Numbered from the stretch's first letter, positions 23,869 to 54,913 are shown. The stretch is DNA of 64,000 bases from Myxococcales bacterium (GCA_024640845.1 JAHEEE010000004.1:14567-78566), one strand, 5' to 3'. Numbers and translations are program-made. Notes: generated by a model not told the origin, from the sequence alone.

Positions 23869-23881
23869 CGCAAAAAATGCG
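23869..23881. promoter_or_regulatory. Candidate enhancer (UAS) palindrome CGCA-N5-TGCG
   Basis: gaCGCAaaaaaTGCGcat, centred 82 bp upstream of the GG of the 23956 promoter. A degenerate partner CGCAagcatTTCC lies at 23898-23910. Confidence 0.55.
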
Positions 23882-23955
23882 CATAACTTCGTTTATCCGC
23901 AAGCATTTCCTGCCCCTCGGCGAGCGAGTCGAACGTTTCACGGGCTTTCTCGTTG

Positions 23956-23971
23956 TGGCACGCACTTTGCT
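23956..23971 (+). promoter_or_regulatory. Sigma-54 (-24/-12) promoter
   Basis: TGGCACGCACTTTGCT is a full match to TGGCACG-N4-TTGCW. It lies 22 nt upstream of the USP ATG at 23993. Confidence 0.7.
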
Positions 23972-23992
23972 CCAAGAGCTGTTCAGGTTTCG

Positions 23993-24472
23993 ATGAATCT
24001 CATGGGGTCTACCGTTCTTGCAGTCACGGATCTGACATCTGCGAGCTACAAGCTCGTGGGGTTCGCGGCCTTCATTGCGGGGCCGACCGACGGCGAGGTC
24101 GTGCTGGTGTCGACCTATGGCGGGGCTGGTGGGGGGCGACGTTCCGAGCCTCCGCCCAGTGAGCGCCGGAATCCAGATCGCTGGAGGGAAAAGGTCGAGG
24201 CGAGGCTCCGGCAGGAAGGCCAGCTCCTCGAGCGTCAGCGCCAGTGGTGCGCCGACCGCGGTGTGCGGTGCCGTGCCGAGCTCTACGAGGAAGGGCGGTG
24301 GCCCGATTTCGTGCTTCAGAGCGCCGAGCGCTCTCGTGTCGACCTGATTTTGGTGGGTATCCAACTGATGGCGTCCGCCGACCAGATCAGCGCCGCGGAT
24401 CTCAAGCGCCTCGTCGAGGACGCCCCGTGCCCGGTCAGCGTGGTGCGGCTTCCCGGCCTTTTTGCCTTCTGA
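23993..24472 (+). CDS. Universal stress protein (single, divergent USP domain)
   Basis: Starts 'MNLMGSTVLAVTD' and ends with 'VDLILVGIQ...APCPVSVVR', the USP hallmarks. The track ORF start at 23774 is an extension. Confidence 0.6.
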   Translation: MNLMGSTVLAVTDLTSASYKLVGFAAFIAGPTDGEVVLVSTYGGAGGGRRSEPPPSERRNPDRWREKVEARLRQEGQLLERQRQWCADRGVRCRAELYEEGRWPDFVLQSAERSRVDLILVGIQLMASADQISAADLKRLVEDAPCPVSVVRLPGLFAF

Positions 24473-24529
24473 GCGCCGGGGTCGCTTTGCGTGCTTGACA
24501 CCAAGGGCGCAATTTGTGAGCCACACCTC

Positions 24530-25708
24530 ATGGCCGACCCCAGCCTGCTCCCCACACTCCGCCAGTATGTGGGGTTTGACGATGCATCCGCTCAGCGCTT
24601 GCAGAGGCTCGCGCCGCGGATGCGTCGCTTCTACCAGGGCGTCGTGGACCAGTTCTACCAGGCGATTCTCGAAGACCCCGGCGCACGCGCGGTCCTGAAG
24701 AACGAAGCGCAGGTGAGCCGGCTCCAGGTCTCGTTGCGGGACTGGCTCGAAGGCCTGTTGTCTGGGCCCTACGATGAGCAGTACTTCGAGAAGCGCGCGC
24801 GAATCGGCCGCATGCACGTGAAGGTGGGGCTCGAGCAGCGGTACATGCTTTCCGCCATGAATGTGATTCGCGTGGGGTTGCACCGTGGTTTGTCGGAGAT
24901 CTCCACCCCCGGGCCGGCCCAAGTCCTCGATCACCGAGCCATCGACCAGATTTGTGACATCGAGCTCGCGATCATGCTCGAGACCTATCGAGAGGACTAT
25001 GTTCTCAAAAAGACGGCCGAGGCCGAGTCTCTCGCAGTGATGGGCCGGCTCACGGCAGGTTTGGCGCACGAGGTGAGGAATCCTCTCAACGCTGCCAAGC
25101 TTCAACTCGACGTGCTGCGACGCAATGCTGCGGCCGTGCAGGAGGAATCGACTCGACGCAAGATCGAGCGTCGCACCAATCTCGTACAGGACGAGCTTCG
25201 CAGGCTGTCACTCTTGCTAGACGACTTCCTCAACCTCGCGCGCGCGCGCAGACTCGACCCAGTGCGATGTGAAGCTGGTGCGCTACTCACCGAGGTCATC
25301 GAGCTTCGGCGTCCTGAGATCGAGTCGCAGGGTATCGAGTTCATCGACGACATCGACTGCGCCCCCTGTGAGCTCGATGCCGAGCGCGATCGCTTGAAGC
25401 AGGTGGTCAACAACCTGATCACGAACGCGGTCGAAGCCGTGGCCGAAAGCGGCCAACCGCGCATTCAAATCACCAGCCGCGCGGGCGGCGAGCGATGGGA
25501 GGTGGCGGTCATCGACAACGGGCCTGGCATCTCCCCCGAGGTCGGCGCTCGCGCGTTCGAGTCGTTCGTCACCACCAAGGACGCGGGCACGGGTCTCGGC
25601 TTGGCGATCGTCAAGCGAATCATCGATCTGCACGGCGGACGGGCCGCCCTGGCCCCGGAGCCGAGTGGCGGGACCCGCGCATCCTTCTGGATCCCATCCC
25701 GGGGCTAG
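24530..25708 (+). CDS. Globin-coupled sensor histidine kinase
   Basis: The N-terminal protoglobin/GCS domain ('RIGRMHVKVGLEQRYML') holds a candidate proximal His. It is followed by the HisKA H-box 'GLAHEVRNPLN' and HATPase_c motifs 'DNGPGI' and 'GTGLGLAIV'. Confidence 0.85.
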   Translation: MADPSLLPTLRQYVGFDDASAQRLQRLAPRMRRFYQGVVDQFYQAILEDPGARAVLKNEAQVSRLQVSLRDWLEGLLSGPYDEQYFEKRARIGRMHVKVGLEQRYMLSAMNVIRVGLHRGLSEISTPGPAQVLDHRAIDQICDIELAIMLETYREDYVLKKTAEAESLAVMGRLTAGLAHEVRNPLNAAKLQLDVLRRNAAAVQEESTRRKIERRTNLVQDELRRLSLLLDDFLNLARARRLDPVRCEAGALLTEVIELRRPEIESQGIEFIDDIDCAPCELDAERDRLKQVVNNLITNAVEAVAESGQPRIQITSRAGGERWEVAVIDNGPGISPEVGARAFESFVTTKDAGTGLGLAIVKRIIDLHGGRAALAPEPSGGTRASFWIPSRG

Positions 25709-25715
25709 AAGACAA

Positions 25716-27164
25716 CTAGTCGAGAGCGGGCGCTTGGTAACCCCACTCTTTGACGCGGTACTGGATCTTTCGTTGACTGATCCCGAGAATCTCGGCGGCT
25801 CGTGCCGTGGAGCCGTCGACTGCGTCGAGCGTGCGCAGGATCGCGATTCGTTCGAGCTCCGACATCGTGATGCCTGGAATCAGGGCCAAGATCGAACCAT
25901 CCTGCATGTCGCCGTGCGCAGAGGTTGGTAGGTCATCGCGTCGGATCAGATCGCCCTCGCACATGACCACAGCGCGCTCGATCGCATTCTCGAGCTCGCG
26001 CACGTTGCCGGGCCATGGGTAGATCATCAGGTGCTGCAGAGCCTCATCAGTGAGGCCCTTCACCGGCCGATCGTTCTCCTTGGCGTACTTGCGGAGGAAC
26101 CCTTGAGCCAGAAGCGGAATGTCGCTCCGCCGGACGCGGAGCGGTGGAACGTCTAGCTGGACGACCTTGAGCCGGTAGTAGAGGTCCTCTCGAAATCGAC
26201 CCTCATCCACGCGCTGCTTCAGGTTGCGGTTCGTCGCCGCGACTACGCGGACATCTACCTTGAGCGTTTCGTTGCCGCCAACGCGCTCGAACTCTCGCTC
26301 TTGGAGGAAGCGCAGAAGCTTGATCTGCACGCTCGGTGGGATTTCGCTGACTTCGTCCAGGAACAACGTGCCGCCATCGGCCTGTTTGAAGCGACCTTCA
26401 CGTCTACCCGCCGCGCCGGTGAAGGAGCCGCGCTCGTGACCGAACAGCTCCGACTCGAGGAGCGTCTCGCTCAGTGAGGCACAATTGAGCCGAATGAACG
26501 GTTTGTCTTTTCGCTTGGAATTCTGGTGGATCGCGGCCGCGATGAGCTCTTTGCCCGTCCCGGTTTCGCCGTGAATGAGCACCGTTGCGCGGCTCCCAGC
26601 CACCTGGGCGACGTTCTTCATCAGCCGTTGCATCGACGGGTGCTCGCCGATGATATTGCCGAACTGAAAGCGCTCGTCGACGCGCTGGCGAAGCTGGGCG
26701 GCTTCACGGCTAAGTCTCGTTCGCTCGAGCGCGCGGTCGACGATGGCGATGACAGCATCGAGCTCGAGTGGCTTGGTCAGATAGCTTTCCGCTCCGAGCT
26801 TGATCGCTTTGACCGCGGTATCGATCGTCGCGAATGCAGTCATCACGATGAAAGTCGCGTGCGGCGCGATCGGACGCCCCCGCTCGATGAGGGACAGCCC
26901 ATCCATTCCGGGCATCTTGAGATCAGTCAGTACGACGTCGGGGTCGGCTTGCTCCACCTGCAGCAGCGCAGTCCTCCCGTCGGCGGCGGTGCTCACCGAG
27001 TACCCAGCATCGTCGAGTAGCTCCGCGAGCGCGTTCCGCGCATTCGCCTCGTCGTCGACGACGAGGATCTTCCCTTTTCGTCCATCGGAACGCAGCGGGA
27101 GGGTTGTGGTCAGGTCGGATGCTGAGGCTGAGGTTACGCTTGTCATGGTATTTCTGTTCGGCAT
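25716..27164 (-). CDS. Sigma-54-dependent response regulator (NtrC-family bEBP)
   Basis: Has a REC domain ('KILVVDDE...VLTDLKMPGMDG'), an AAA+ domain with 'GETGTGKE' and 'GSFTGA' (a GAFTGA variant), and a C-terminal Fis-type HTH ('AAEILGISQRKIQYRVKEWG'). Confidence 0.93.
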   Translation of the reverse strand: MPNRNTMTSVTSASASDLTTTLPLRSDGRKGKILVVDDEANARNALAELLDDAGYSVSTAADGRTALLQVEQADPDVVLTDLKMPGMDGLSLIERGRPIAPHATFIVMTAFATIDTAVKAIKLGAESYLTKPLELDAVIAIVDRALERTRLSREAAQLRQRVDERFQFGNIIGEHPSMQRLMKNVAQVAGSRATVLIHGETGTGKELIAAAIHQNSKRKDKPFIRLNCASLSETLLESELFGHERGSFTGAAGRREGRFKQADGGTLFLDEVSEIPPSVQIKLLRFLQEREFERVGGNETLKVDVRVVAATNRNLKQRVDEGRFREDLYYRLKVVQLDVPPLRVRRSDIPLLAQGFLRKYAKENDRPVKGLTDEALQHLMIYPWPGNVRELENAIERAVVMCEGDLIRRDDLPTSAHGDMQDGSILALIPGITMSELERIAILRTLDAVDGSTARAAEILGISQRKIQYRVKEWGYQAPALD

Positions 27165-27175
27165 CTAGTTGGTGT

Positions 27176-28603: not shown

Positions 28604-28619
28604 GGCAGCGGTCCTATCT

Positions 28620-28635
28620 AGCAAGATGCGAGCCC
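28620..28635 (-). promoter_or_regulatory. Sigma-54 (-24/-12) promoter candidate
   Basis: The minus strand reads GGGCTCGCATCTTGCT. GG-N10-GC spacing is correct, the -12 TTGCT is perfect, and the -24 reads GGGCTCG versus TGGCACG. Confidence 0.55.
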
Positions 28636-28732: not shown

Positions 28733-28786
28733 CCACCCCTCCTCAACACCAGCCCTGTCGCTGAAGATCGGATAAATAGGAGGACG

Positions 28787-32918: not shown

Positions 32919-35900
32919 CTACAACCACTTCTGAATATGCATTCCGAGCGCCGCTGGCCTCATCGGCGCTCGGTTCCTTGGGAGTACCCGGAAGCGAAGC
33001 TCGTGGCCGCCGCTTGCTCTCACGGCGAAGGCGCCTCGCCAGGTGCTGCGGTTTTCGGCGCCCTCCGATTCAAAGGAGACGACGATCCGGGATGACGGCT
33101 CGTTCTTTTTTCGGCCGAACGAGACGACCGCTTCGACCTCGAGGTCTCGGGCGTCGAGCCCGGGATGGTGGAGCGTCAACTCGGCCGAGACGTGCGTCCC
33201 GACGACGATCTCGTTGCTGCTCAGACCTCCAAAGCGCACGCTCTCCATCGTGATGTCGTTCCAGTGCGTGCGGACTTCTTCGGCAACGTCGGCGAGGGCG
33301 AAGAGTGGACGATAGTTCGACTCGCGAAGCGCGATCGCATCTTGCATGGCGGGCTCATAGAACATGTCCGCATAGTTCGTGAGCATTCGACGGGACGAGA
33401 AACGCGGAATGATGCTCGCCATGCTCGCCTTCATGCGTTCGACCCACGCGACCGGCACGCCCTCCGCATTGCGATCGTGGTACTCGGGCAGAATTTCGCC
33501 CTCGAGCAGCGCCATCGTGATCGCACGGTCGTACGCGCTCGGATCGTGAATCGAAGACGAGGGCAGGTCGATTACCCAGCCATTATCCCCTTGGTAGCCC
33601 TCGAGCCACCAACCGTCATCGACGCTGAGGTTCACACAGCCGTTCATGGCGGCTTTCATACCCGAGGTGCCGCTCGCTTCGAGCGGGCGCGTTGGCGTGT
33701 TTAGCCAGACGTCGCACCCGGCAACCATCCGGCGCGCCTCGTCGATCGAGTAGTCCTCCATGACGATGACGCGGCCCGCAAGCGAGGGGTGCTTCGAAGC
33801 CTGGTAGACTCGCTGGAGGAGCGCCTGGCCATGCCCATCGGCCGGGTGGGCCTTGCCGGCATAGATCATCGTGGCGCCCAGGGTGCCTTCGAGGAGCTTG
33901 GCAAGGCGCTCGGGATCGGCCAGCAACAAGTCGGCGCGCTTGTACGGGGCAAAGCGCCGCGCAAAGCCGATCAGCAGACGGTCCTCGTCGAGGTGGTCGA
34001 GGATGTCCCGCAGCAGCGACAGGTCTTCGCGACGCCTCGTCCAACTCTGGGTCAGGTGCTCTTTCAGCCAGTCGATGTAGTCGGCGCGCAGCTCGCGATG
34101 AATCGACCAAATCTCAGCCGGGTCGTGTTTGCGGAGCCACTTCCACTGGAACCGATCTTCGATCCTGTTGCGCCAATCGTGCCCCATCTCGCGCTCGAAG
34201 AGGCGTTGCCATCGCGGCGCCACCCAGGTCGAGACGTGGACGCCGTTGGTGATGCTGGTGCAAGGGACGTCGTCTGCGTCGTCGAGCTCGGGATAGAACT
34301 GGAGAAACATGTTGCGGGCGACTTCACCGTGCTTCGCGCTCACGCCGTTGATCCGCTCGCAGTTTCTCACGGCGAGCGCGGTCGTGCCGAACTCGTTCGG
34401 AGCGCCGTTTGGTGTATTGCCGATCGCCATCAGGCGCGGCCAATCCATACGAAGCACGTGCTCGAAGCGCGTCAGATACGGGCGCACCATCTCTTCGGGG
34501 AAGTGGTCGTGCCCTGCTGGCACCGGAGTGTGTGTCGTAAAGACAGTCGTGTTGCGGATGTACTCGAATGCTTCTCGTGACCTGAGACCGTGGCGCTGAA
34601 TCAAGTGAGCCGCGCGCGCGATGATCAAGAACGCGCTGTGCCCCTCGTTCATGTGGAACACGTCTGGCTCGATATCGAGCTCGGTCAGCATTTGGTATCC
34701 GCCGAGGCCCAGGATCATCTCTTGACGCAGACGATGCGCAGAGTCGCCGCCGTAAAGACGGTTGGTAATCGCTCGGTCCTCCGGACGGTTCTCGGGCAGG
34801 TTGGTATCGAGCAAGAACAGCGGCACCCGTCCGACCTCGAGTCGCCAAGCGCTCACTTGCACGGGCCCAGTCGGCAGTGGAACCGTCACCCTGAGCGGCG
34901 CGTACTGACCAGCCATCACCTGCTTGAACGGCGGGCTCCCGAAGTCGTTGGTGTCGCTGAGGTGCTCTTGGTGTCCGTCCCGGTCGATCATTTGGCGGAA
35001 GTAGCCATCATGGTAGGCCAGGCCAACGGCGCACAAAGGCAAGTCCAAGTCGCTGGCGGCCTTCAGATGGTCGCCGGCGAGAATGCCGAGGCCGCCCGAA
35101 TAGAGCTTCAGAAACCCAGCGATGCCGAACTCCATGCAGAAGTACGCAATTCTAGGGTCCTTGGCCTGCGTCGCCTCGGACATCTCGCGAGCGGACCGTG
35201 CAACGTCGGCGACGTAGCCTTCGTCCAACGCGAGGTTCATCAAACGCTCGGGCTTGACCTGATCGAGAAGAGCGTGCGGGTTCTCTTCGAGTTTGAACCA
35301 CAGCTCGGGATCGATCTTCTTGAACAAGGAGGCGACTTCGGGGTGCCAGCGCCACCAGAGATTGGCGGCGATGTCTTGAAGCGGTCGCAGCTCGCTCGGG
35401 AGCGCGTTGGTCACCGAGAAGGTGCGAGTGTAGGGGGCGGCCTCCTCGCCCTCCTTGGCGGGAGGGATCACGAATGCACCGAAGACGCCGGAATCTCCCG
35501 AGATCGTTGGCGTCGACGGGACGCTCAGCCGCTCCATGGGCAGTTCCTTGCGTCGGGCTGCGCCGGCCTCCAGCGCGAGCTGGTGTGCCCGCTCATAGTG
35601 CTCCATGAAGTTCGACCAGTCGGTCAGCGCCGCGGTTTCGAGCGAAGCTTGCCCGAGAGCTTCGCGATCCTCGGGTGGCAGATCGATGAACTCGAGCATG
35701 GCCTTCTTGAGGACGTCGCTCACCTCGTCGAAGGACACTCCCTCGCGCTTGAGCACGCGAACACCGGTGCGCTTGCCTTCGCCAAGTGAGGCGGCCCAGC
35801 GCCCGAATCCGGCGCGGTCGGTCGTGATCGCGGGGACCCCGAAGGCCACGGCCTCGAGCGGCGTGTAGCCCCACGGTTCGTAGAAGGAGGGGAATACGCC

Positions 35901-37172
35901 GAGGTCCGCCCCGGGAAGGAGGTCCCAGTACTTCTGGCGAATCAATAGGTCGGTGCCGTCGAGGTAGATCGGGACATGCACGACGTGCACGGGTGCGCCG
36001 TGCGTGTTCTCGACGCCCAACGCGTTGAGCTGATTGGTGATCGGATCGTTCGCCTCGTCGACCAGGTCGTGCGTGCAGCGCAGTGGCGACCCCGCCGCGG
36101 AGCCATGCGCGCGATCCCACAGCGCGCGCTTCGGCTCTGCGTGACCGGCCGGAAGCATGGCATATACGATCACCCGTTTGCCGTCGCGAGACGCAAGCTC
36201 TTCCGGTAGGCCGAAGGCTGCCTCGAAGTAGACGTCCACGCCCTTGTTGACGTACTCGTATCGGCCGGCGAGCGCGAAGATGAGCGTCTTTTCGCGGTCG
36301 TATCGGTCGCCGGTCGTGAGCTCTGCGAGCTTGAAAAGCTCCTCTCTCGCCTGCTGGCGTTGCTCGTGAGCGACTGGTTTGGCGCCAAACCCGTTGGGCA
36401 GAATCACGTCTGGCGTTCGGCCTAACAGATACCGGCATTCGAGCGCGGTGATCTCGCTAACGGTCGTGAAGACGTCTGCCTCGCGCGCCGCGACGGATTC
36501 CATCGAATGCTTCGACGAGACGTTGAGCTCTTTCGCGGCCACTTCCGGGTCGACGTTCGGCAGCGATTGGTAGAAGTTCGGGTCTGCGCGGCGTCCTGCC
36601 AGCGAGCGTCCGAGCATCGTTGCATGGGTCGTGAACACCGTGCCGATCTCAGGCGCCGCCGTCTGGAGGTGTAGAATCGCGGCGGCGGACATCCACTCGT
36701 GGGCCTGCACGAGGGCTTTCTGCCGTCCGGGCAGCAGGAAACGGTCACGAATGTGTTCGATGATCATGCCTGCCGCGTGTGCAAACAAGACCGGGTCGTA
36801 GTAGTCCCAGGCGCCGAACAACGAATCGAGCCCGTACTTCTCCCAGTAGCGGCCGAGAATCTCGTCCTTGCGCGGGTAGAGGCTCGAGTGATTGATCAGC
36901 AGGCACCGAGGCTCCCCTGGCACGAGCCAACGGCCCATCTCGATCCCGATCTCGTGGTCTCGAAGCGATTCGGCAAGCGCGCTATCCCAAATATCGGGGC
37001 GAAACTCGGGGGCGACCCCCTCGGCGCGTGGGACGTCGGGGCCGATCGTGATGTATCGGTCTTCGCCGTGGCGCTGCTGAACCTCCGGGACGCGGCTCGC
37101 CAACACGGTGTGGATACCGCCCACCATGTTGCAGACTTCCCAGGAGATTTCGAAGAACACCGCTCTGCTCAT
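32919..37172 (-). CDS. Fusion protein: GT3 (eukaryote-type) glycogen synthase + GT35 alpha-glucan phosphorylase
   Basis: 1417 aa. The N-terminus 'FFEISWEVCNMVGGIHTVL' resembles the GT3 glycogen synthase N-terminus. The C-terminal half has 'YFCMEFGI', 'GGLGILAGDHLKAASDL' and the PLP-Lys motif 'EASGTSGMKAAMNG' of alpha-glucan phosphorylases. Confidence 0.85.
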   Translation of the reverse strand: MSRAVFFEISWEVCNMVGGIHTVLASRVPEVQQRHGEDRYITIGPDVPRAEGVAPEFRPDIWDSALAESLRDHEIGIEMGRWLVPGEPRCLLINHSSLYPRKDEILGRYWEKYGLDSLFGAWDYYDPVLFAHAAGMIIEHIRDRFLLPGRQKALVQAHEWMSAAAILHLQTAAPEIGTVFTTHATMLGRSLAGRRADPNFYQSLPNVDPEVAAKELNVSSKHSMESVAAREADVFTTVSEITALECRYLLGRTPDVILPNGFGAKPVAHEQRQQAREELFKLAELTTGDRYDREKTLIFALAGRYEYVNKGVDVYFEAAFGLPEELASRDGKRVIVYAMLPAGHAEPKRALWDRAHGSAAGSPLRCTHDLVDEANDPITNQLNALGVENTHGAPVHVVHVPIYLDGTDLLIRQKYWDLLPGADLGVFPSFYEPWGYTPLEAVAFGVPAITTDRAGFGRWAASLGEGKRTGVRVLKREGVSFDEVSDVLKKAMLEFIDLPPEDREALGQASLETAALTDWSNFMEHYERAHQLALEAGAARRKELPMERLSVPSTPTISGDSGVFGAFVIPPAKEGEEAAPYTRTFSVTNALPSELRPLQDIAANLWWRWHPEVASLFKKIDPELWFKLEENPHALLDQVKPERLMNLALDEGYVADVARSAREMSEATQAKDPRIAYFCMEFGIAGFLKLYSGGLGILAGDHLKAASDLDLPLCAVGLAYHDGYFRQMIDRDGHQEHLSDTNDFGSPPFKQVMAGQYAPLRVTVPLPTGPVQVSAWRLEVGRVPLFLLDTNLPENRPEDRAITNRLYGGDSAHRLRQEMILGLGGYQMLTELDIEPDVFHMNEGHSAFLIIARAAHLIQRHGLRSREAFEYIRNTTVFTTHTPVPAGHDHFPEEMVRPYLTRFEHVLRMDWPRLMAIGNTPNGAPNEFGTTALAVRNCERINGVSAKHGEVARNMFLQFYPELDDADDVPCTSITNGVHVSTWVAPRWQRLFEREMGHDWRNRIEDRFQWKWLRKHDPAEIWSIHRELRADYIDWLKEHLTQSWTRRREDLSLLRDILDHLDEDRLLIGFARRFAPYKRADLLLADPERLAKLLEGTLGATMIYAGKAHPADGHGQALLQRVYQASKHPSLAGRVIVMEDYSIDEARRMVAGCDVWLNTPTRPLEASGTSGMKAAMNGCVNLSVDDGWWLEGYQGDNGWVIDLPSSSIHDPSAYDRAITMALLEGEILPEYHDRNAEGVPVAWVERMKASMASIIPRFSSRRMLTNYADMFYEPAMQDAIALRESNYRPLFALADVAEEVRTHWNDITMESVRFGGLSSNEIVVGTHVSAELTLHHPGLDARDLEVEAVVSFGRKKNEPSSRIVVSFESEGAENRSTWRGAFAVRASGGHELRFRVLPRNRAPMRPAALGMHIQKWL

Positions 37173-41921: not shown

Positions 41922-41937
41922 AGCAGGAGGCGTGCCA
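41922..41937 (-). promoter_or_regulatory. Sigma-54 (-24/-12) promoter for the glycogen operon
   Basis: The minus strand reads TGGCACGCCTCCTGCT (perfect -24, -12 CTGCT). It lies about 60 nt upstream of the GTG at 41861. Confidence 0.65.
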
Positions 41938-41999
41938 AAGCCTGGCCTGAAGACCCGGGCCGTTCCGTCACAAACAGACAACATTAACGGTCCCTACGG

Positions 42000-42043
42000 C
42001 GCAATGAATGCGGGTTCAAGCAGTCATCGCGCAACCGGTGCGC
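42000..42043. promoter_or_regulatory. Tandem UAS candidates (CGCA-N5-TGCG x2)
   Basis: CGCAatgaaTGCG (42000-42012) and GCGCAaccggTGCGC (42029-42043) have centres 30 bp apart. They lie 70 and 100 bp upstream of the -24 GG. Confidence 0.6.
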
Positions 42044-44497: not shown

Positions 44498-45394
44498 CTA
44501 CCGGCCTTCGTGCGTGAGCAACAGCGGCACCTGGCTCTCGTGGAGGAGGCGTCGAGCGACGCTTCCGATGAGGAGGCGTTCTATGCCGCTCTTCCCCGTC
44601 GTGCCCGCACAAATGAGCGTTGCGTCGACGTCCTCCGCAATTTGGAGGATCCCCCCGGCGGGGTCGCCGGTCACGAGGTGGGTTTGGGCGTTCTGCGGGT
44701 CCGTCGAGAAGATCTCTTTGGAGTCCGCCTCGAGCATCTCCTGAAGACCGAGGCGAAGGGCCTCCCGACGCTTCTCCGCGGCTTCCCCAACGACGGCGCC
44801 GCGGTCGGTGTACTCGCCCCACACGTCGAGGTAGCTGTGCACCAAGTGAAGGGATCCGCCGAACACGCCATGAATCGCCCGCGCGACTTCGGCTGCTCGC
44901 TTGGCCGGGCCGGAAAAATCGTACGCGATGACGATGGAGGTCGGCGGCTTTTCATGTCCTCCCGGAGGAACTACGAGGATTGGCGTGTGCACGGTCTTGA
45001 TGACGCGCTCGGTGACGCTTCCGTACATGAGCTTCGAAACGCCCGTGCGGCCGTGGGTTCCGACGACGACTAAGTCGACGTCGTGTTCCTTGGCATAGTC
45101 TCGAATGACCTCGTGCACCGTGCCCTCGCGGATCGCCGTAAAAAGCTCGACGCCCGTGTCAGCGATGGTCTTGGCCTGCGCGTCCAGCGCTTCCTGCGAA
45201 TCGTTGAGAATCCGAGTGACGGCTTCCGGGCCTGGGCTGTAGCTCAAGTCCATCAAGAGATACGTCGGAACCACGGGCGTATGCAGGAGGTGTAGCTTTG
45301 CCGACCATCGCTTGGCCAGGTCGACGGCATAATCGACCGCGTGCTGGGCGTTGTCCGAGAAGTCGGTGGGCACGAGGATTTGATTGATCTGCAT
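44498..45394 (-). CDS. Universal stress protein, tandem USP domains
   Basis: Starts 'MQINQILVPTDFSDNAQHAV' and contains 'VDLVVVGTHGRTGV...VHTPILVV'. The second domain has 'TLICAGTTGKSGI...SQVPLLL'. Confidence 0.9.
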   Translation of the reverse strand: MQINQILVPTDFSDNAQHAVDYAVDLAKRWSAKLHLLHTPVVPTYLLMDLSYSPGPEAVTRILNDSQEALDAQAKTIADTGVELFTAIREGTVHEVIRDYAKEHDVDLVVVGTHGRTGVSKLMYGSVTERVIKTVHTPILVVPPGGHEKPPTSIVIAYDFSGPAKRAAEVARAIHGVFGGSLHLVHSYLDVWGEYTDRGAVVGEAAEKRREALRLGLQEMLEADSKEIFSTDPQNAQTHLVTGDPAGGILQIAEDVDATLICAGTTGKSGIERLLIGSVARRLLHESQVPLLLTHEGR

Positions 45395-45928: not shown

Positions 45929-45944
45929 TGCAAAGAATGCGCCA
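45929..45944 (-). promoter_or_regulatory. Sigma-54 (-24/-12) promoter for the hemerythrin operon
   Basis: The minus strand reads TGGCGCATTCTTTGCA, with correct spacing and a perfect -12 TTGCA. Confidence 0.65.
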
Positions 45945-45975
45945 AACGTTTAGCAGGATTTCGCTTCGCAGGACA

Positions 45976-46017
45976 CGCAAGTTCTGCGCCGGACTGGAAT
46001 GTTTCGCAGAACATGCG
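45976..46017. promoter_or_regulatory. Tandem UAS candidates between divergent promoters
   Basis: caCGCAagttcTGCGcc (45976-45988) and CGCAgaacaTGCGtg (46005-46017) have centres 29 bp apart. Together they form a larger inverted repeat, ACACGCAAGTTCTGCG-N16-CGCAGAACATGCGTGT. Confidence 0.6.
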
Positions 46018-46059
46018 TGTTTCTCGCTATGCTTTGCAGCCAATACCTGCAACCCAGGT

Positions 46060-46075
46060 TGGCACGAAGCTTGAT
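46060..46075 (+). promoter_or_regulatory. Sigma-54-like promoter candidate (non-canonical -12)
   Basis: TGGCACGAAGCTTGAT has a perfect -24 TGGCACG, but the -12 reads TTGA instead of TTGC. It lies 17 nt upstream of the USP ATG at 46091. Confidence 0.4.
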
Positions 46076-46090: not shown

Positions 46091-46570
46091 ATGGACCAGC
46101 CTCGAACGATTCTCGTCGGTACCGACTTCTCCGACATCTCGGACGAAGCGTTGCGAGCGGCGTCTCTCTACGCCAGGACCTTCAACTCCCGCGTGCTCGT
46201 TACCCATATTTTCGACCCGACTCCCAACGTTCCGCCAGTGGTCTGGTCCCGTCCGGACCTTCTGGAGCGCAGCATCCGCATCGAAATCGAGGATGCCATC
46301 CGCGAAACTCTGACCGGCAAGACCGCGGAGTTGTTGAAGGGGGTCTCCGAGGTCGAGCTCAGCGTGGTTCAGCATCCTTCCCCAGGCCGGGCGCTCGTCG
46401 AGATCGCCGAAGACGAAGAAGTGGATCTCGTCATCCTGGGCTCGCACGGTCGGAGTGGCCTATCGCGGGCCTTCCTCGGCAGCGTCGCCGAGCGAGTCGT
46501 TCGACATGCGCCGTGCCCCGTATTGGTGGTGCGGGGTCGTTGTGACCACGAGCCGAAGCACGGAGAATAG
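46091..46570 (+). CDS. Universal stress protein
   Basis: Starts 'MDQPRTILVGTDFSDISDEAL' and contains 'VDLVILGSHGRSGL...APCPVLVV'. Confidence 0.9.
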   Translation: MDQPRTILVGTDFSDISDEALRAASLYARTFNSRVLVTHIFDPTPNVPPVVWSRPDLLERSIRIEIEDAIRETLTGKTAELLKGVSEVELSVVQHPSPGRALVEIAEDEEVDLVILGSHGRSGLSRAFLGSVAERVVRHAPCPVLVVRGRCDHEPKHGE

Positions 46571-46573: not shown

Positions 46574-46984
46574 GTGTCATTGATCCCACGTTTGGTCGTT
46601 GCGTATGATTTCTCGGACCCGGCGAGGCGGGCCTTCGAGCTCGCGGTATTCATGGGTCGGCAGCTCGGCGCGGATGTCCACGTCGTCACGGTCCTCGACT
46701 CGAAGGAATCGAAGCCAGGCGCGGCCGGCGATGAGCTGGACGACCTCCGGAAGCTCCTCGAGATGCGGACCGCCGGTACAGTCAAGTCGGACGACGTGAA
46801 GCTTCAGTGCCACGCGCTCGCTGGCGAGCCTGCGGATGCGATCGTGGCGATCGCCAAGGAGATCGATGCGCCACTCATCATCTGCGGGACGACCGGCAAG
46901 GGTGCCGTGGCGCGGACACTGCTTGGCAGCGTGTCTCACGAGCTCGTTCACAAGAGCGGCGCAATCGTGATGTCGGTGCCGTAG
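46574..46984 (+). CDS. Universal stress protein
   Basis: GTG start 4 nt after the previous stop. Contains 'LVVAYDFSDPARRAF' and 'APLIICGTTGKGAV...SGAIVMSV'. Confidence 0.85.
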   Translation: MSLIPRLVVAYDFSDPARRAFELAVFMGRQLGADVHVVTVLDSKESKPGAAGDELDDLRKLLEMRTAGTVKSDDVKLQCHALAGEPADAIVAIAKEIDAPLIICGTTGKGAVARTLLGSVSHELVHKSGAIVMSVP

Positions 46985-48994: not shown

Positions 48995-49172
48995 GGGGTA
49001 CCTCCAACTCCTCTTCGAGGGGAATGCGTGCGTTGTGATCCGCCTCGGCTGCGCTCATCCGCATCACGCGAACGACTACGACTAGAAACACGGTGAAAAA
49101 CAGAAGCAGCGCGATGACTGGGTAGAGCAACGCGGGGCTCTGCGCGAAGAACTCTGAAGCAAACCGGCTCAT
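48987..49172 (-). CDS. ccoQ: CcoQ/FixQ-like small membrane subunit
   Basis: 61 aa with a single TM segment ('[20 protein letters not shown]'). It lies between ccoNO and ccoP, with ATGA overlap to the ccoNO stop. Confidence 0.55.
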
Positions 49173-51511
49173 TGCCCTGCCTCCTCTCCTGCCGCAGCGA
49201 GCGCCTCGCCTTCGGGCACTTTGCCCAAACGTTGCAGGTACGCGATCAGCGCGACCAGGCGGCTGTTGACGACCAACTCGCAGCCTTCGATTTCCGCCTC
49301 GCACACTTTCACGCCCGCTTGCTCGGCTAAGCCTGCCGCGATTCCGGCGGCGGCAGTCTGAGCGTCCTGTTCGGACGTTTGAATCTGCTCGGGCTTATAC
49401 GGGACACCGACGTTTCTCAGGGCCCGCATCTTCGCGGCGGTGCCCGAAAAGTCGACGGTCCACGTCGCGAGGTGCGGGTAGGGCGGCATGTTGGAACCAG
49501 GCGAGATCTCGCGAGGGTCGATCATGTGTTTGTAGTGCCAGACATCGGCGTACTTGCCGCCGACACGCGCCAAGTCCGGACCGATGCGGCGAGAGCCCCA
49601 CTGGAACGGATGGTCGAAGATCGAGTCGTCGATCGTAGAAACGGCGCCATAGCGCGCGGTCTCCCAGGTGAACGGTCGAATCATCTGCGAGTGGCAGGTG
49701 TAGCAACCTTCGCTGATGAAGACGTCCCTGCCTTCGAGCTCGAGCGGGGTGTAGGGCACGTTCTTGGTAGTTCGAATCGACTCGGGCACCGAGATGACCA
49801 TCGGGATGATCTCTGCAACGCCGCCGACCAGGATGCCGATCGTTACGAGTACCGTGAAGACGCCTGCACGACCTTCGAGCACGCTGTGCCATGGGATTTT
49901 CTCACTGCCTCGGTCACGAATCATGATGGCGATCGCTGCGACGGCCCACATGATGGCGAAGAGCGCGAGGACCGTGCTGATCAAGCCGTCGAAGAGCACC
50001 ATGCCAAACAGAAGCGCCATCACGATGATGGACGCCATCACCGGTTGGCCGAAGAGGAGCTTCGGCCACGGCACCTCGCGGGTGCGTGGCTCGGTGACGA
50101 CAGCAACCTCGATCTCGCCGTCGACCGCCGCGCCGCTGCGGGCGGTCGCGATGAGGTTCCAGGCCATCAGGATGATCCCCGCGAAGTAGAGGAGCCCGGA
50201 GATGAGACGGGCCCAGTACATCGGTCGAATCGCGAGATAGGTCTCGACGAAGTTCGGGTAGAGCAACCCGCCGGTCTCGCTGACCGCGCGCCACATCAAG
50301 CCTTGCGTGATGCCCGCGACCCACATCGAGATCGCGTAGATAAGAATTCCAACTGTCGCGATCCAGAAGTGGAAGTTAGCGGCCCCACGCGAGTGAAGCT
50401 TCGTTCCGTACAGCCTCGGCACCAGCCAGTAGAACATGCCGGCGGCCATCAGACCGTTCCAGCCCAAGGCGCCGCTGTGCACGTGACCGATGATCCAGTC
50501 CGTGTAGTGTGCGAGGCCACTGACGCTCTTGATTGAAAGCAGCGGGCCCTCGAAGGTGCTCATGCCATAGAAGGTGACGCCTGCCGCGAAGAACTTCAGG
50601 ACTGGGTCGGCGCGGAGCTTGTCCCACGCGCCGCGCAGCGTGAGTAGGCCGTTCAGCATGCCGCCCCAGCTCGGGGCCCACAGCATCAAGCTGAAGACCA
50701 TGCCGAGGCTCTGCGCCCAGTCGGGCAGTGCTGTGTAGAGCAAGTGGTGAGGGCCGGCCCAGATGTAGATGAAGACCAAGCCCCAGAAGTGAACGATCGA
50801 GAGGCGGTACGAGAAGACGGGGCGTTCGGCCGCCTTCGGAAGGAAGTAGTACATGATGCCGAGGATTGGCGTAGTGAGGAAGAAGGCGACGGCATTGTGG
50901 CCGTACCACCATTGGACGAGTGCATCCTGGACGCCGGCGAAGACCGAGTAGCTCTTCAGCATCGTCACCGGGATCTCGAAGCTGTTCACGATGTGGAGGA
51001 CGGCCACCGTGATGATCGTCGCGATGTAGAACCAGATCGCGACGTAAAGGTGCTTCTCGCGCCGTTTCGCGAGGGTCCAGAAAAAGTTCACCGCGAAGAC
51101 GACCCATATCAGGGCGATCGCAATGTCGATCGGCCACTCGAGCTCGGCGTATTCCTTCGAGGTCGTGATGCCGAGCGGAAGAGTGATCGCCGCGGATACG
51201 ATGATGAGCTGCCAACCCCAGAAGTGGATCGAGGACAAGATGTCGGAAGCTAAACGTGCTTTCACCAATCTCTGCGTCGAGTAGTAGACACCCGCAAACA
51301 ACATGTTGCCGACGAACGCGAAGATGACCGCATTGGTGTGCAACGGCCTCAGGCGACCGAACGACAAGAACGGCGGCAAGTTCGCCGGCCAGAACGCCAA
51401 CTGCAGGGCGATGATGATGCCCACCAGCATGCCGACGATGCCGAACAGCACCGACGCCCAAATGAACTGGCGGACGACTTTGTCGTTATAAACGATCCGC
51501 TGAGTTTCCAT
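49169..51511 (-). CDS. ccoNO: Fused cbb3 oxidase subunits I+II (CcoN-CcoO)
   Basis: 780 aa. The N-terminal ~480 aa is a haem-copper oxidase subunit I of cbb3 type. The C-terminal part carries the CcoO haem-c site '[12 protein letters not shown]' after a TM segment. Confidence 0.9.
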
Positions 51512-51686: not shown

Positions 51687-54082
51687 GGGCGCCCTCGTCG
51701 CGACAGCATCATCACCGTATACGCGAGCGTGATGAGTGAGCTGAGCGGCATTAGCACAGCTGCGACCCATGGTTTCATCAAACCCGCCATGGCGATCGAT
51801 ACAGCGACCAGATTGTATGCGATTGCAAACGCGAGTATGCGACGCACCACGTGCGCCAGCGAATCCGAGGCGCGCAAGACTTGCGCCACTGGGTGCAAGC
51901 CTGGGGACACGAAGTAGAAGTCACATCGCGAGGCCATGAACGGTCGATCGACTGCAGGAGTACCCGAACAAGCCGCCTCTCTCATCGCGACTTGGTCGTT
52001 CAAGCCATCGCCCACCAGCAAAGTCCGTGCCGGATCGTGCTCACGCACATACGCGGCCTTTTGTTCAGGGCTCTTCCCGCCGATACACCTGCTCTCGGGC
52101 ATGCCGAGGCTGGCGCCGAGGGTCGTCACACGCTGCTGCCCATCCCCACTGAGGATCGCGAGCTCGTACCCCCGCTGCTCGAGCTTGTCGATTTCGTCGC
52201 GAGCGCCGGGTCGAAGCTGCTCATCGGTGGTGATGCTCGCGAGCACTTTCCCATTCGCAGAGAAGACGACGTCGCCGTCGCTCCTTGCGGGGCCCGCCGC
52301 CCACTCCGGCGCGCCGAGCCGGTAGTCGATGTCGGCCCGCCGGGCCGAGATCCCATAGCCGGTGTGCTCTTCGGCCTCGATCTCGGCGAAGCGCGCGGCG
52401 GGATGCCCTTCGAGCGCGCGCCGAACGGCGACGCTCTTCGGGTGCGCGCTGCGGGCCGCCATGTTGTAGACGACGGCAATCTCCGCGTCCGCGAGGCGTC
52501 TCAACGGGGCCGGATCGACCACCTCGAGGACCCCGGTCGTCAACGTTCCCGTCTTGTCGAACACGATCCGGGTCATCGAGCGGACCCGGTCGAGAAAATC
52601 GCCTACGCGCACGAAGATGCCAAGGCGTCGGAGCTGGGTGAGGACCAGCTCGTACGCGAGCGGAGCGGCGATGCCGAATGCGCAGGGGCAGGTCACCACG
52701 AGGACCGCGGTGCCGACCTCGATTGCGCGGAGCGGCTCGCCGCTTCGCCACCACCAGAAGCCGATCGCGGCGCTCGCCAGCGTAATGACGCCGACGACGT
52801 AATAGCGTGAGAGCCGCGACCACCACTCGGACGCCAAGGGTCCGTCTCCTTTGTTCGCCGGGTCACTCCCGAGGAGGCCCACCAATGACGAAGCCGCAAA
52901 GTCGCTCAATGCAACCCCGGAGAACGCGCGTTCGCCGACGTTGAAAGCGCCGGCTGGGATGGTGTCGCCCCCCTCGAATCTTCGCGGTCGGCTCTCTCCG
53001 TCGATCCAGTCGAGCGAGCAGCGCACCGTGTCGTCGACGACCCGAAGATCGACGGGCACGAGATCCCCGGGTGCGATCAGCAAGCGATCCCCATTGCGGA
53101 TTCCGATGCAATGCACGATGCGAACGACGCCGTCCTTCACCTCGCGCGTGAGCAGGCTTTCGGTGCCGTCATCCGCGAGCAGCTGGGCGCGGTTGCGTTC
53201 GAGCATGCGCTGCTGGAGCCAACGGCCGACCAACATCAGCGCGACGAACACGGTCAGCGTGTCGATGTAGGCCGCTTCTCCCGAAGCGAAGAAGAACGAC
53301 CACGTCGAGCCGATGAAGGCGAGAACGATGCCGAGCGCGATGGGCACGTCGAGGTGCAGGATGCCCCGCCGAACTGCACGCGCGGCCGAGCCGATGAAGA
53401 CCGACCCGCCCACCAGCACCGCGAGCACGCCGGCGGCATAGCTCAAGTCGTTGAGGATCTCGTAGACGGGCCCCTCGCGAAGGCCGAGATAGATTGCGGC
53501 GGCGAACAGCATGACGTTCATGGCGAGCGCGGCGCAGATGCCGACGCGCAACAGAAGGTCGTCAGAAGGGCGCGCGCCTGTCGAACGGGCGGGGCCGAGC
53601 AGGTAGCCAAGGCCCTCGACCGAATCGACCCAATCGGAGAGCGGGAACTCTGGCGGGATGCGGAGCTCGATGCGGCCGAGCGCCGGGTTGATGGTCATGA
53701 GCCCGGCCTGCGCCCCCCCTTGGCGGCGAAACAGCTCCTCGACGAGCCAAACGCAGGCTGCGCAGTGGATCCCCTGGATGTCCAGCTCGACGCGAGAGAG
53801 ACCTCGTTCGTGGGCCCGCGCCTCCTCGATCAGCTCGAGCCACTTGTGATCGATGTGACGCGCATCGAGATCGGCAGGCGGAAGACCGGGGCCACTTCGC
53901 AGGTCGTAGTAGCGCGTCAGCCCGGCTTTGTTGAGGATGGCGTGCACCGCCCGGCACCCGCGGCAGCAGTACGGGGCGAATGCGTCGCTGACCAGCGGTT
54001 GCGCGCAGTGCACACAACGCGAGCCGGCGTGGAGTGGTTCCCCGAGCGTGGTCTCACAGACAGCGGGTTGAGGAGCGGTCAC
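51674..54082 (-). CDS. ccoI: Copper-translocating P1B-type ATPase (CcoI/FixI-like)
   Basis: Contains 'DKTGTLT', a 'CPC' TM motif, an N-terminal Cys-rich region, and an HMA-like motif 'HCAACV'. It sits within the cco cluster. Confidence 0.9.
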   Translation of the reverse strand: MTAPQPAVCETTLGEPLHAGSRCVHCAQPLVSDAFAPYCCRGCRAVHAILNKAGLTRYYDLRSGPGLPPADLDARHIDHKWLELIEEARAHERGLSRVELDIQGIHCAACVWLVEELFRRQGGAQAGLMTINPALGRIELRIPPEFPLSDWVDSVEGLGYLLGPARSTGARPSDDLLLRVGICAALAMNVMLFAAAIYLGLREGPVYEILNDLSYAAGVLAVLVGGSVFIGSAARAVRRGILHLDVPIALGIVLAFIGSTWSFFFASGEAAYIDTLTVFVALMLVGRWLQQRMLERNRAQLLADDGTESLLTREVKDGVVRIVHCIGIRNGDRLLIAPGDLVPVDLRVVDDTVRCSLDWIDGESRPRRFEGGDTIPAGAFNVGERAFSGVALSDFAASSLVGLLGSDPANKGDGPLASEWWSRLSRYYVVGVITLASAAIGFWWWRSGEPLRAIEVGTAVLVVTCPCAFGIAAPLAYELVLTQLRRLGIFVRVGDFLDRVRSMTRIVFDKTGTLTTGVLEVVDPAPLRRLADAEIAVVYNMAARSAHPKSVAVRRALEGHPAARFAEIEAEEHTGYGISARRADIDYRLGAPEWAAGPARSDGDVVFSANGKVLASITTDEQLRPGARDEIDKLEQRGYELAILSGDGQQRVTTLGASLGMPESRCIGGKSPEQKAAYVREHDPARTLLVGDGLNDQVAMREAACSGTPAVDRPFMASRCDFYFVSPGLHPVAQVLRASDSLAHVVRRILAFAIAYNLVAVSIAMAGLMKPWVAAVLMPLSSLITLAYTVMMLSRRGRPWRS

Positions 54083-54816
54083 GGTGTATGCTGATGGTGT
54101 TCGTGTGCGGCCCCGGCATCGGACGCAGAGCCCTCCTCAGAAGGACCGTGGCATGCTGCCGTGTCGCCGTGGCGCAGCGCGTGAACCGGTCGAATGACGA
54201 ACATGACGGCGCCGAGCGCGAGCACGACTGCGAGAATGCGGGAGGTCGTAGGTCGCGGGCGGCGCGAGAAGCGCTCGAACAGCCACGCCGCCCCGACCAA
54301 GCCGACGCCGCTCACCATGGCGAATGCCAACATGCTCAGAGCGCCGGCCGTGGCGGCCCCAGTCGATGCGGCGATGAGAACCGCGGCTGCGAGCGCCCCG
54401 CAGGGGAGCAGCGCCGTGCCGAGCCCCACGAAGAACGGATGGCGTCCGAGCGCGCGAACCACGTTGGACCCGGTCGACTTCGAAGCCGCTTCCTCTTTGG
54501 TACGCAGCGAGACCAAGGCTTGGTCGGGGCGTCGCCACAAGCGAAACGCGGCCAGACCCAAACCGAGCGCAAGCGACCAGCTCAGAAGCGCGCTGCCCCA
54601 TGCGCCTGGCAAGCTCACCGCTGTCGCGCCGCCCACCGCGCCCGCGGTCCCACCGAGGACGGAGTAACTGATGAAGCGTCCGAGCTGATAGCGGCCTTGA
54701 CCCAGTGCTCCTGGGCTTCCGCTGCATGCATAGGCCGCCAAAGGGCCGCACATCGCAGTGCAATGCGGAACCGATGCGAGGCCTGCGGCAGCCCCGGCAA
54801 TTACAGCCGTCCACAT
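54079..54816 (-). CDS. DsbD_2 / TauE-SafE-like membrane protein (HCxxMCGP motif)
   Basis: 245 aa and multi-TM, with 'VPHCTAMCGPLAAYAC'. Its stop overlaps the ccoI start. Proteins of this kind commonly accompany ccoI/ccoS. Confidence 0.65.
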   Translation of the reverse strand: MWTAVIAGAAAGLASVPHCTAMCGPLAAYACSGSPGALGQGRYQLGRFISYSVLGGTAGAVGGATAVSLPGAWGSALLSWSLALGLGLAAFRLWRRPDQALVSLRTKEEAASKSTGSNVVRALGRHPFFVGLGTALLPCGALAAAVLIAASTGAATAGALSMLAFAMVSGVGLVGAAWLFERFSRRPRPTTSRILAVVLALGAVMFVIRPVHALRHGDTAACHGPSEEGSASDAGAAHEHHQHTP

Positions 54817-54853
54817 ACGGCCTCGTTAGGGTCAGTCATCCAGCCTGTCACCA

Positions 54854-54869
54854 CGCAACCCATATGCCA
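54854..54869 (-). promoter_or_regulatory. Sigma-54 (-24/-12) promoter for the cco operon
   Basis: The minus strand reads TGGCATATGGGTTGCG (TGGCAT-N5-TTGC). It lies 38 nt upstream of the ATG at 54816. Confidence 0.65.
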
Positions 54870-54900
54870 CGGGTTCTTGGGTCTCCCTTATACTCGAAGA

Positions 54901-54913
54901 CGCATATTTTGCG
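54901..54913. promoter_or_regulatory. UAS candidate CGCA-N5-TGCG
   Basis: gaCGCAtatttTGCGcg, centred 39 bp upstream of the minus-strand -24 GG, in a divergent intergenic region. Confidence 0.55.

Follow-up and report, generated by a model that had tools for sequence, protein, structure and literature searches.

Paired CGCA-N5-TGCG palindromes at sigma-54-type promoters of an uncultured myxobacterium: a probable counterpart of the Myxococcus xanthus NmpR regulon

Introduction

Tandem sites with dyad symmetry lie upstream of the -24/-12 promoter glnAp2 of Escherichia coli, where they are bound by dimers of NtrC, a REC-AAA+-Fis-HTH protein that assembles into an active oligomer. Here, we analyze a 64,000-nucleotide stretch of DNA from a Myxococcales bacterium (GCA_024640845.1, JAHEEE010000004.1:14567-78566), hereafter the window, in which the palindrome CGCA-N5-TGCG recurs, mostly in pairs, next to sigma-54-type promoters, and in which an NtrC-type activator is encoded at positions 25716-27164. 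The window has a G+C content of ~63%, and its source is a Polyangiales-like myxobacterium.

The closest described system is that of Myxococcus xanthus, in which NmpRSTU govern a regulon of oxygen utilisation (McAllister et al. J Bacteriol 2025, PMC11841059; Bretl et al. PLoS Genet 2018, PMC6211767). In electrophoretic mobility shift assays, NmpR binds GCGCA-N5-TGCGC, in which GCA-N5-TGC is invariant (PMC11841059). Two sites, S1 and S2, are required, and mutation of S2 abolishes both binding and reporter activity; in five of the seven bound promoters, 14-15 nt separate the 15-bp sites, i.e., 29-30 bp centre to centre. Expression requires the sigma-54 site and rises under hypoxia in an NmpR-dependent manner. 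Members of the regulon are the CBS-nmpR operon, the nmpU protoglobin-kinase operon, a gene for a universal stress protein (USP), those for a P-type ATPase with the cbb3 oxidase, hemN together with hemerythrin, and also pilR, whose promoter is located within the pilS gene; the CBS gene is the lead NmpR target. Glycogen and acyltransferases are not mentioned in the 2025 study, which cites NtrC-type tandem sites as the typical enhancer pattern (PMC11841059). Generic NtrC enhancers resemble the window in having tandem dyad-symmetric sites upstream of a -24/-12 promoter; however, the half-site sequence of the window motif differs from theirs.

In Mycobacterium tuberculosis, a haem-based O2-sensing kinase of the DosS/DosT-DosR system controls USPs, a CBS-domain protein and a triacylglycerol synthase of the WS/DGAT type. 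DosR is a NarL/LuxR-type regulator that acts at sigma-70-type promoters through an unrelated operator, and the DosS and DosT sensors are of the GAF-haem kind. The likeness between the DosR regulon and the window is one of content only, a storage and low-respiration programme, and is an analogy, not a homology: the regulator class and promoter type of the window are unrelated to those of DosR, and its sensor is a globin, not GAF-haem. The parallel in USPs has been noted for the NmpR system (PMC11841059). FixLJ-FixK/FNR in Proteobacteria, cited in the same study, bring about low-O2 induction of the cbb3 oxidase (ccoNOQP/fixNOQP) and of the assembly genes ccoGHIS. The high-affinity oxidase and its assembly genes are low-oxygen targets there, as is predicted for the window system; however, FixLJ-FixK/FNR use a PAS-haem or Fe-S sensor, a CRP/FNR regulator and a TTGAT-N4-ATCAA operator, with no sigma-54. 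Finally, AfGcHK of Anaeromyxobacter sp. Fw109-5 (PDB 5OHE, 5OHF and 6OTD), described as an NmpU homologue, has the Protoglobin-HisKA-HATPase architecture that is also found in the window kinase. According to the literature, phosphate from AfGcHK and NmpU goes to the receivers in NmpT and NmpS rather than to the activator.

Results and Discussion

Comparison of the locus with the NmpRSTU regulon

We consider it very probable that the palindromes are enhancer sites for the NtrC-type regulator encoded at 25716-27164, and that this regulator is the functional counterpart of M. xanthus NmpR. The motif is enriched and paired in the window, is positioned near -24/-12 promoters, is conserved in relatives and co-occurs with the activator clade. 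The window and the NmpRSTU system have the following in common: (i) the same dyad, GCGCA-N5-TGCGC; (ii) paired sites 14-15 nt apart, the centre-to-centre spacings in the window being 30, 30, 29 and 30 bp; (iii) sigma-54 promoters within ~100 bp of the sites; (iv) an NtrC-type REC-AAA+-HTH_8 regulator, a protoglobin kinase and autoregulated signalling genes; (v) a set of targets, predicted in the case of the window, among which are a CBS protein, USPs, hemerythrin and a P-type ATPase with the cbb3 oxidase, although no clear -24/-12 element precedes the CBS gene at 28787; and (vi) one intragenic enhancer each, in pilS in M. xanthus and in ccoI in the window, where its function is probable. The activator is likened to NmpR (MXAN_4240) indirectly, through the shared motif, the type of partner kinase and the regulon.

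The two systems also differ. The host of the window is an uncultured member of another Myxococcota class (Polyangia); the hybrid kinase NmpS and the phosphosink NmpT are absent from the 64-kb window, in which the protoglobin kinase adjoins the activator; the window adds, as predicted targets, a glycogen operon and a WS/DGAT acyltransferase gene that shares an operon with the activator, each with a conserved pair and a promoter; and no link to pilR was seen in the window. A preliminary description of this DNA had not recognised the motif as the operator of a known regulator, which turned out to be wrong, since it is the published NmpR consensus GCGCA-N5-TGCGC (PMC11841059). The 2025 publication on NmpR already describes this motif together with its spacing and the set of genes; the operator is therefore not new, and the window is a new example of an NmpR-type system in an uncultured relative, not a new kind of operator.

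Enrichment and pairing of the palindrome

We found 13 perfect copies of CGCA-N5-TGCG in the window, compared to 3.99 +/- 2.02 in dinucleotide-preserving shuffles of the window sequence (the largest count was 10, and 0 of 100 shuffles reached 13). Three perfect-perfect pairs spaced 29-31 bp (42000/42030, 45976/46005 and 51843/51873) were observed, versus none in 200 shuffles, and two more pairs, 28690/28720 and 23869/23898, have one weaker member each. Seven perfect copies lie in promoter regions beside -24/-12 elements, as had been claimed. The site coordinates reported earlier (23869, 28720 with the one-mismatch partner TGCAaacgaTGCG at 28690, 42000/42030, 45976/46005 and 54901) are all exact, and the spacings of 30, 30 and 29 bp for the three listed pairs hold; the list missed the fourth pair, 51843/51873, with a spacing of 30 bp in the 3' end of ccoI. 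Two sites described as single, 23869 and 54901, are indeed present but have conserved weaker partners at +29/+30 (23898, CGCAagcatTTCC, and ~54931, respectively).

One-mismatch copies are not enriched (72 in the window versus 77 expected); thus, the signal resides in the perfect copies, and degenerate partners had to be located through position and conservation. Four perfect copies (12365, 29524, 34726 and 45518) have neither conservation nor promoter context and resemble chance occurrences, their number matching the chance expectation of ~4. One of these, 45518, was considered as a site or promoter for the USP gene at 45394 and was rejected, as it is not conserved in 19 relatives. A one-mismatch copy at 45929 was likewise rejected as a third binding site: relatives retain GG-N10-GC and lose CGCA, and it is therefore the -24/-12 promoter of the hemerythrin gene.

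Among the unique perfect pairs of the window and its relatives, the spacing is 29 bp in 22 cases, 30 bp in 29 and 31 bp in two, and other spacings are rare. The earlier wording of about three helical turns is approximate, 29-30 bp being ~2.8 turns at 10.5 bp per turn. All functional copies have the form CGCA-N5-TGCG, and over 103 unique paired sites G is preferred at -1 and C at +1 (56% each), which extends the motif to GCGCA-N5-TGCGC; perfect 15-mers are found at 42030 and 51873. An A/T bias of the spacer had also been reported; it is seen in the seven promoter-region copies (26 of 35 spacer bases) but is mild across the 103 paired sites.

Promoters and their probable enhancer sites

The palindromes are found in a low-oxygen locus with the following contents, as annotated with Pfam: a USP gene and a Protoglobin-HisKA-HATPase kinase gene (23993-25708, plus strand); the NtrC-type activator gene (25716-27164, minus strand) behind a WS/DGAT gene; genes for a CBS protein and a tandem USP; the glycogen operon; genes for hemerythrin and three more USPs; and a DsbD_2-ccoI-ccoS-ccoNO(fused)-ccoP-ccoG cluster. 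The whole locus at 23869-59690, with several USPs, a haem-sensor kinase, two WS/DGAT proteins, CBS proteins, glycogen enzymes and a high-affinity oxidase, parallels the DosR regulon.

Palindrome centres are found 39-100 bp from six -24/-12 elements of the sigma-54 type, which are oriented toward the regulated gene and are conserved in relatives. The reported range of 39-100 bp between site centre and -24 GG was thus confirmed, and this position of the sites upstream of conserved promoters supports the proposed geometry of tandem enhancers of a bacterial enhancer-binding protein (bEBP). Orthologous and syntenic loci are denoted below by L and a number. The first promoter region precedes the USP gene 23993-24472 and the globin-kinase gene:

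23869-23881: distal enhancer site aCGCAaaaaaTGCGc, perfect; USP/globin-kinase operon; centre 82 bp from the -24 GG; conserved in L002 and L074
23898-23910: proximal weaker partner CGCAagcatTTCC, two mismatches; 29 bp from 23869; CGCAA-N4-TTGC form conserved in L002 and L074
23956-23970, plus strand: sigma-54 promoter TGGCACgcactTTGC, zero mismatches; USP 23993-24472 and globin kinase; conserved in L002 and L074

The region between the WS/DGAT-activator operon and the divergent CBS gene contains one pair, and the tandem-USP gene has a promoter of its own:

28621-28635, minus strand: weak sigma-54 promoter GGGCTCgcatcTTGC, two mismatches; WS/DGAT-activator operon, start codon at 28605; GCC and TTGCT blocks conserved in L001, L002 and L012
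28690-28702: proximal enhancer TGCAaacgaTGCG, one mismatch; WS/DGAT-activator operon; perfect CGCA...TGCG at the orthologous position in L001, L002 and L012
28720-28732: distal enhancer CGCAtaataTGCG, 30 bp from 28690; almost invariant in L001, L002 and L012
29262-29276, plus strand: sigma-54 promoter TGGCACggtgcTTGC; tandem-USP gene; conserved in L001, L002 and L012

The CBS gene at 28787 shares its intergenic region with the 28690/28720 pair, and no clear -24/-12 element for it was found in the window. In L001 (~1316-1368), a good TGGCAT-N5-ATGC precedes the CBS gene; the equivalent in the window (28733-28786) is degenerate, CTGTCGC-N5-ATCG, and therefore the CBS gene may have lost direct sigma-54 control in the window lineage.

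The glycogen operon codes for a debranching enzyme, GT4, GH57 and a glycogen synthase/phosphorylase fusion:

41923-41937, minus strand: sigma-54 promoter TGGCACgcctcCTGC; glycogen operon; invariant block in 13 relatives
42000-42012: proximal enhancer gCGCAatgaaTGCGg; centre 70 bp from the -24 GG
42030-42042: distal enhancer gCGCAaccggTGCGc, perfect 15-mer; centre 100 bp from the -24 GG

The cores at 42000 and 42030 are nearly invariant across 13 sequences, with a single T-for-C change in L107. The fusion is a 1417-aa open reading frame (32919-37172, minus strand) with an N-terminal eukaryote-type glycogen synthase (PF05693) and a C-terminal alpha-glucan phosphorylase (DUF3417 and PF00343); enzymes of glycogen synthesis and breakdown thus appear to be fused in one protein within the operon of the 41923 promoter.

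Two divergent promoters share the next pair:

45930-45944, minus strand: sigma-54 promoter TGGCGCattctTTGC; hemerythrin; GG-N10-GC conserved in 22 relatives, the palindrome-like half not; probably also drives USP 44498-45394 and genes downstream
45976-45988: shared enhancer CGCAagttcTGCG between the divergent promoters; conserved in 22 relatives, spacer included
46005-46017: shared enhancer CGCAgaacaTGCG, 29 bp from 45976; conserved in 22 relatives
46060-46074, plus strand: sigma-54 promoter TGGCACgaagcTTGA; USP 46091-46570 and USP 46574-46984

In the 46060 promoter, TGGCAC is invariant in 22 sequences. Its -12 element has an unusual GA (TTGA) instead of the canonical GC (TTGC); TTGA is kept in 21 of the 22 sequences (TCGA in L096) and is, therefore, neither a sequencing error nor a recent mutation.

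Finally, the oxidase cluster is preceded by the following elements:

54855-54869, minus strand: sigma-54 promoter TGGCATatgggTTGC; DsbD_2-ccoI-ccoS-ccoNO-ccoP-ccoG operon; conserved in most of 12 relatives
54901-54913: proximal enhancer aCGCAtatttTGCGc; centre 39 bp from the -24 GG; conserved in 11 of 12 relatives
54931-54944: degenerate distal partner cCGCGaaaaTGCCg; a good site in relatives, L106 having a perfect pair at 2636/2666

In this operon, ccoN and ccoO are fused (49169-51511, minus strand) and encode a 780-aa protein with COX1 and FixO domains; the fusion is kept in syntenic relatives.

Conservation in related genomes

About 30 syntenic relatives were obtained from a metagenome scan seeded with CcoG (81-93% protein identity), and a genome scan seeded with the activator yielded the close relatives L001, L002, L012 and L074. 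We aligned five promoter regions, with 3-22 relatives each. The CGCA/TGCG cores and the -24/-12 elements form conserved islands in all five, and most of the surrounding DNA has diverged. At the weaker-partner positions of 23869 and 54901, relatives carry better copies than the window does. In other Polyangia loci, conserved sites precede genes for USPs, hemerythrin, ccoNO, WS/DGAT and protoglobin kinases.

Four short blocks in the intervals between enhancer and promoter are also conserved, across 12-22 relatives, and are neither palindrome copies nor promoter elements: 41963-41975 (TTCCGTCACAAC), 45948-45962 (GTTTAGCAGSATTTC), 46024-46035 (TCGCTATGCTTT) and 54880-54890 (CTTATAC). They may be sites for a bending protein (IHF-like) or for a second regulator.

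The activator and its orthologues

The proposed palindrome binder is encoded in an operon behind the WS/DGAT acyltransferase gene:

25716-27164, minus strand: NmpR-like sigma-54 activator, proposed palindrome binder; Pfam Response_reg 33-142, Sigma54_activat 171-337, HTH_8 434-474

Its orthologues, found in metagenome-assembled genomes of Polyangia, have 56-94% identity, and all belong to Myxococcota. The best 120 protein matches listed for the activator are all from close Polyangiales, and the single genome scan gave no Myxococcus match. No NCBIfam equivalog model (AtoC, ZraR, NtrC, NtrX, LuxO and others) reaches its curated cut-off for the activator; the best score is that of AtoC (519.5 versus a cut-off of 714), with ZraR at 458 (cut-off 760) and NtrC at 456 (cut-off 559). 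In 43 orthologue loci there are 135 sites, compared to 54.6 expected, and 16 perfect pairs, whereas 37 loci of NtrC-family paralogues contain 15 sites (18.5 expected) and no pairs. The HTH signature GST..AA..LGIS.RKIQY[RK] is restricted to the orthologue clade; its recognition helix, RKIQY[RK], contrasts with the R.TLYNK-type helix of the paralogues. In eight orthologue loci (L014, L021, L023, L026, L027, L031, L034 and L039), a pair is located directly upstream of the activator gene. Thus, the earlier suggestion that the Fis-type HTH of the 25716 activator is the binder is supported by the clade-specific co-occurrence, the recognition helix and the precedent of M. xanthus NmpR.

The following mechanism is proposed. 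A dimer of the activator would bind each (G)CGCA-N5-TGCG(C) dyad via the C-terminal Fis-type HTH, and two dyads 29-30 bp apart would nucleate an active AAA+ oligomer upon phosphorylation of the receiver. From 39-100 bp upstream, the oligomer would contact the sigma-54 holoenzyme at the -24/-12 element and bring about open complex formation. The predicted targets are the genes for USP and protoglobin kinase, the WS/DGAT-activator operon (autoregulation), the glycogen operon, the divergent hemerythrin/USP and USP/USP operons, and the genes for assembly and structure of the cbb3 oxidase. By analogy with the M. xanthus literature, the sites would be physically bound, and expression would depend on sigma-54 and be induced by hypoxia. 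We infer that the 25716 protein itself binds the window sites, and that the oxygen response of the window system has the same direction.

The ccoI pair

The fourth perfect pair lies within a coding sequence:

51843-51855: intragenic site CGCAccacgTGCG; 3' end of ccoI, upstream of ccoS/ccoNO
51873-51885: intragenic site gCGCAagactTGCGc, perfect 15-mer; 30 bp from 51843

Both members are perfect in at least 10 relatives. The third-codon positions within the two cores have entropies of 0, 0, 0.37 and 0.59 bits, lower than most neighbouring third positions. In the more distant orthologue loci L006, L015, L030, L035 and L040, a site or pair is found in intergenic DNA just upstream of ccoNO. The intragenic pair is probably functional; a convincing -24/-12 element between the pair and ccoS/ccoNO was sought and not found.

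A separate 32-nt block in the 3' end of ccoI (51738-51769, minus-strand sense; coding-sense sequence TGGGTCGCAGCTGTGCTAATGCCGCTCAGCTC) shows almost no variation among ~12 relatives. It keeps the A/T-ending codons GCA, GCT and CTA, of a kind that is variable elsewhere in this region, and adjacent synonymous sites vary. Situated downstream of the 51843/51873 pair, with ~50-80 nt between it and the ccoS start, the block has a poor fit to -24/-12 and may be the internal promoter or an RNA element.

Contrary observations and alternative explanations

It should be noted that several observations weigh against the palindromes being NmpR-type enhancer sites. The preliminary description held that a site is present upstream of every sigma-54-type promoter of the locus; this is true of six promoters but not of the perfect TGGCACGGTGCTTGC at 29262, which has no nearby site, the nearest pair being 537-567 bp upstream. 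In L002 the CBS gene is absent, and the equivalent promoter is closer to the pair. In L014, L031, L034 and L039, the pair is located downstream, not upstream, of a good -24/-12 element; therefore, the geometry is not uniform. The missing promoter downstream of the ccoI pair belongs here as well, as does the absence of NmpS (REC-HisKA-CA) and NmpT (REC-REC) genes from the window, owing to which the signalling logic may differ from that of M. xanthus.

In the four loci with reversed order, which belong to Kofleriaceae and Polyangiaceae (L014 ~9885-9985, L031 ~8875-8970, L034 ~9951-10046 and L039 ~9824-9920), the pair lies between the promoter and the activator start codon, ~50 bp downstream of TGGCAY-N5-xTGC. 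This order may reflect activation from downstream or negative autoregulation.

Three other explanations were weighed. The palindromes might be operators of a different factor, either another bEBP or a dimeric oxygen/redox regulator encoded elsewhere, with the 25716 activator a mere member of the regulon. The activator gene does lie downstream of a site pair, as expected of a mere target, and the four reversed loci have the pair in a position typical of repressor operators. However, only loci with the orthologous activator and its HTH have an excess of the motif and its pairing, and paralogue loci have neither; no other DNA-binding regulator was found beside the sites in the window; and the identical motif and spacing are bound directly by NmpR in vitro in M. 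xanthus (PMC11841059). We therefore regard a different binder as improbable. More doubtful still, and in our opinion very unlikely, is that the palindromes are sigma-54 promoter-like sequences or by-products of them. A copy preceded by GG reads TGGCGCA-N4-TTGC, close to TGGCAC-N5-TTGC; minus-strand -24/-12 matches with one or two mismatches occur at 28721, 42031, 45519, 45977, 51844 and 51874; and the one-mismatch copy at 45929 did prove to be the hemerythrin promoter. Conversely, the conserved bases are the CGCA and TGCG halves and not the flanking GG. Half of the relatives have lost the TGG that flanks 51843, and a GG flank is missing from most sites, 23869, 46005 and 54901 among them. Better -24/-12 elements, separate from the palindromes and fully conserved, are found 39-100 bp away, and the fixed pairing at 29-30 bp has no role in promoter recognition.

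It could also be argued that GC-rich palindromes arise here by chance or composition, or are structural repeats similar to repetitive extragenic palindromic elements, with no regulatory role. Such a background does exist: ~4 copies are expected, four of the 13 have no conservation or promoter context, and the one-mismatch set is not enriched. However, the shuffles never gave 13 copies or even one perfect pair, the cores are conserved in up to 22 relatives while spacers and flanks diverge, and the four-base arms are too short for a stable hairpin. The conservation and pairing statistics effectively refute this explanation.

Sensor kinase and signalling input

Next to the activator gene in the window is the kinase gene, which starts 19 bp downstream of the USP gene 23993-24472, whose promoter bears the sites 23869/23898, and is probably co-transcribed with it:

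24491-25708, plus strand: Protoglobin-HisKA-HATPase_c sensor kinase (NmpU/AfGcHK-like); Pfam; best solved-structure match 5OHE, E=5e-31

AfGcHK (5OHE) is thus the best solved relative of the sensor domain, and no NCBIfam model reaches its cut-off for the kinase. The signal is probably oxygen, sensed by this protoglobin kinase adjacent to the activator. NmpS and NmpT genes are also absent from the closest-relative loci L001, L002 and L074; an NmpS gene could be located elsewhere in the genome, outside the window.

At least three input architectures are found in the activator clade. In the more distant orthologue loci L019 and L023, a Protoglobin-kinase gene is followed by a gene for a REC-PAS-HisKA-HATPase (NmpS-like) kinase and then by the activator gene (L019:7077-9718 and L023:11885-14499); L016:7455-8924 encodes a single Protoglobin-PAS-HisKA-HATPase protein; and the window and L005 have a Protoglobin-kinase alone. 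These three arrangements suggest repeated rewiring of the signalling input.

When kinase cores are placed in a neighbour-joining tree (without support values), the window kinase groups with activator-adjacent NmpS-like cores, apart from the NmpU-like cores of loci that contain both NmpU-like and NmpS-like kinases. In this respect the window kinase differs from AfGcHK and NmpU, and its clustering with the REC-PAS (NmpS-like) kinases suggests that the globin has replaced the receiver domain. The absence of nearby NmpS and NmpT genes, the architectures of L016, L019 and L023, and the kinase-core tree together suggest a pathway shortened relative to that of M. xanthus, in which the window kinase would transfer phosphate directly to the activator, bypassing the NmpS relay. 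A broader proposal, to which we give somewhat less than an even chance, is that the four-protein Nmp phosphorelay has collapsed to an ordinary two-component pair (a globin on an NmpS-type core phosphorylating the activator) and that this change, an extension of the regulon to glycogen and WS/DGAT storage, and an enhancer inside ccoI make up a sigma-54 analogue of the DosR dormancy programme.

Significance of the locus

Conservation of the NmpR site, with pairing at 29-30 bp, extends to a second Myxococcota class, and low-oxygen regulons of uncultured Polyangia can therefore be predicted from the M. xanthus consensus. Being known, the motif counts for little as an operator discovery, and the contribution of the window is comparative evidence. 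What is new locally are the site pairs at the glycogen operon and the WS/DGAT gene, the pair inside ccoI, and the kinase that seemingly bypasses the NmpS relay; these are testable extensions of published work and are not surprising. The predicted regulon reaches genes of glycogen and neutral-lipid storage, beyond respiration and stress proteins, and thereby hints that hypoxia may trigger storage or quiescence in sediment myxobacteria.

Other observations

In a 476-bp non-coding gap at 12078-12554, TGGCACTGGCAC occurs in tandem (12093-12104), and the perfect palindrome at 12365 stands isolated. A long inverted repeat with 35-nt arms (12126-12160 and 12294-12328, 89% complementary, 133 nt apart) is also located in this gap. 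A search of the whole window and of 11900-12700 against Rfam gave no meaningful match; the gap may represent an element similar to miniature inverted-repeat transposable elements or a structured RNA.

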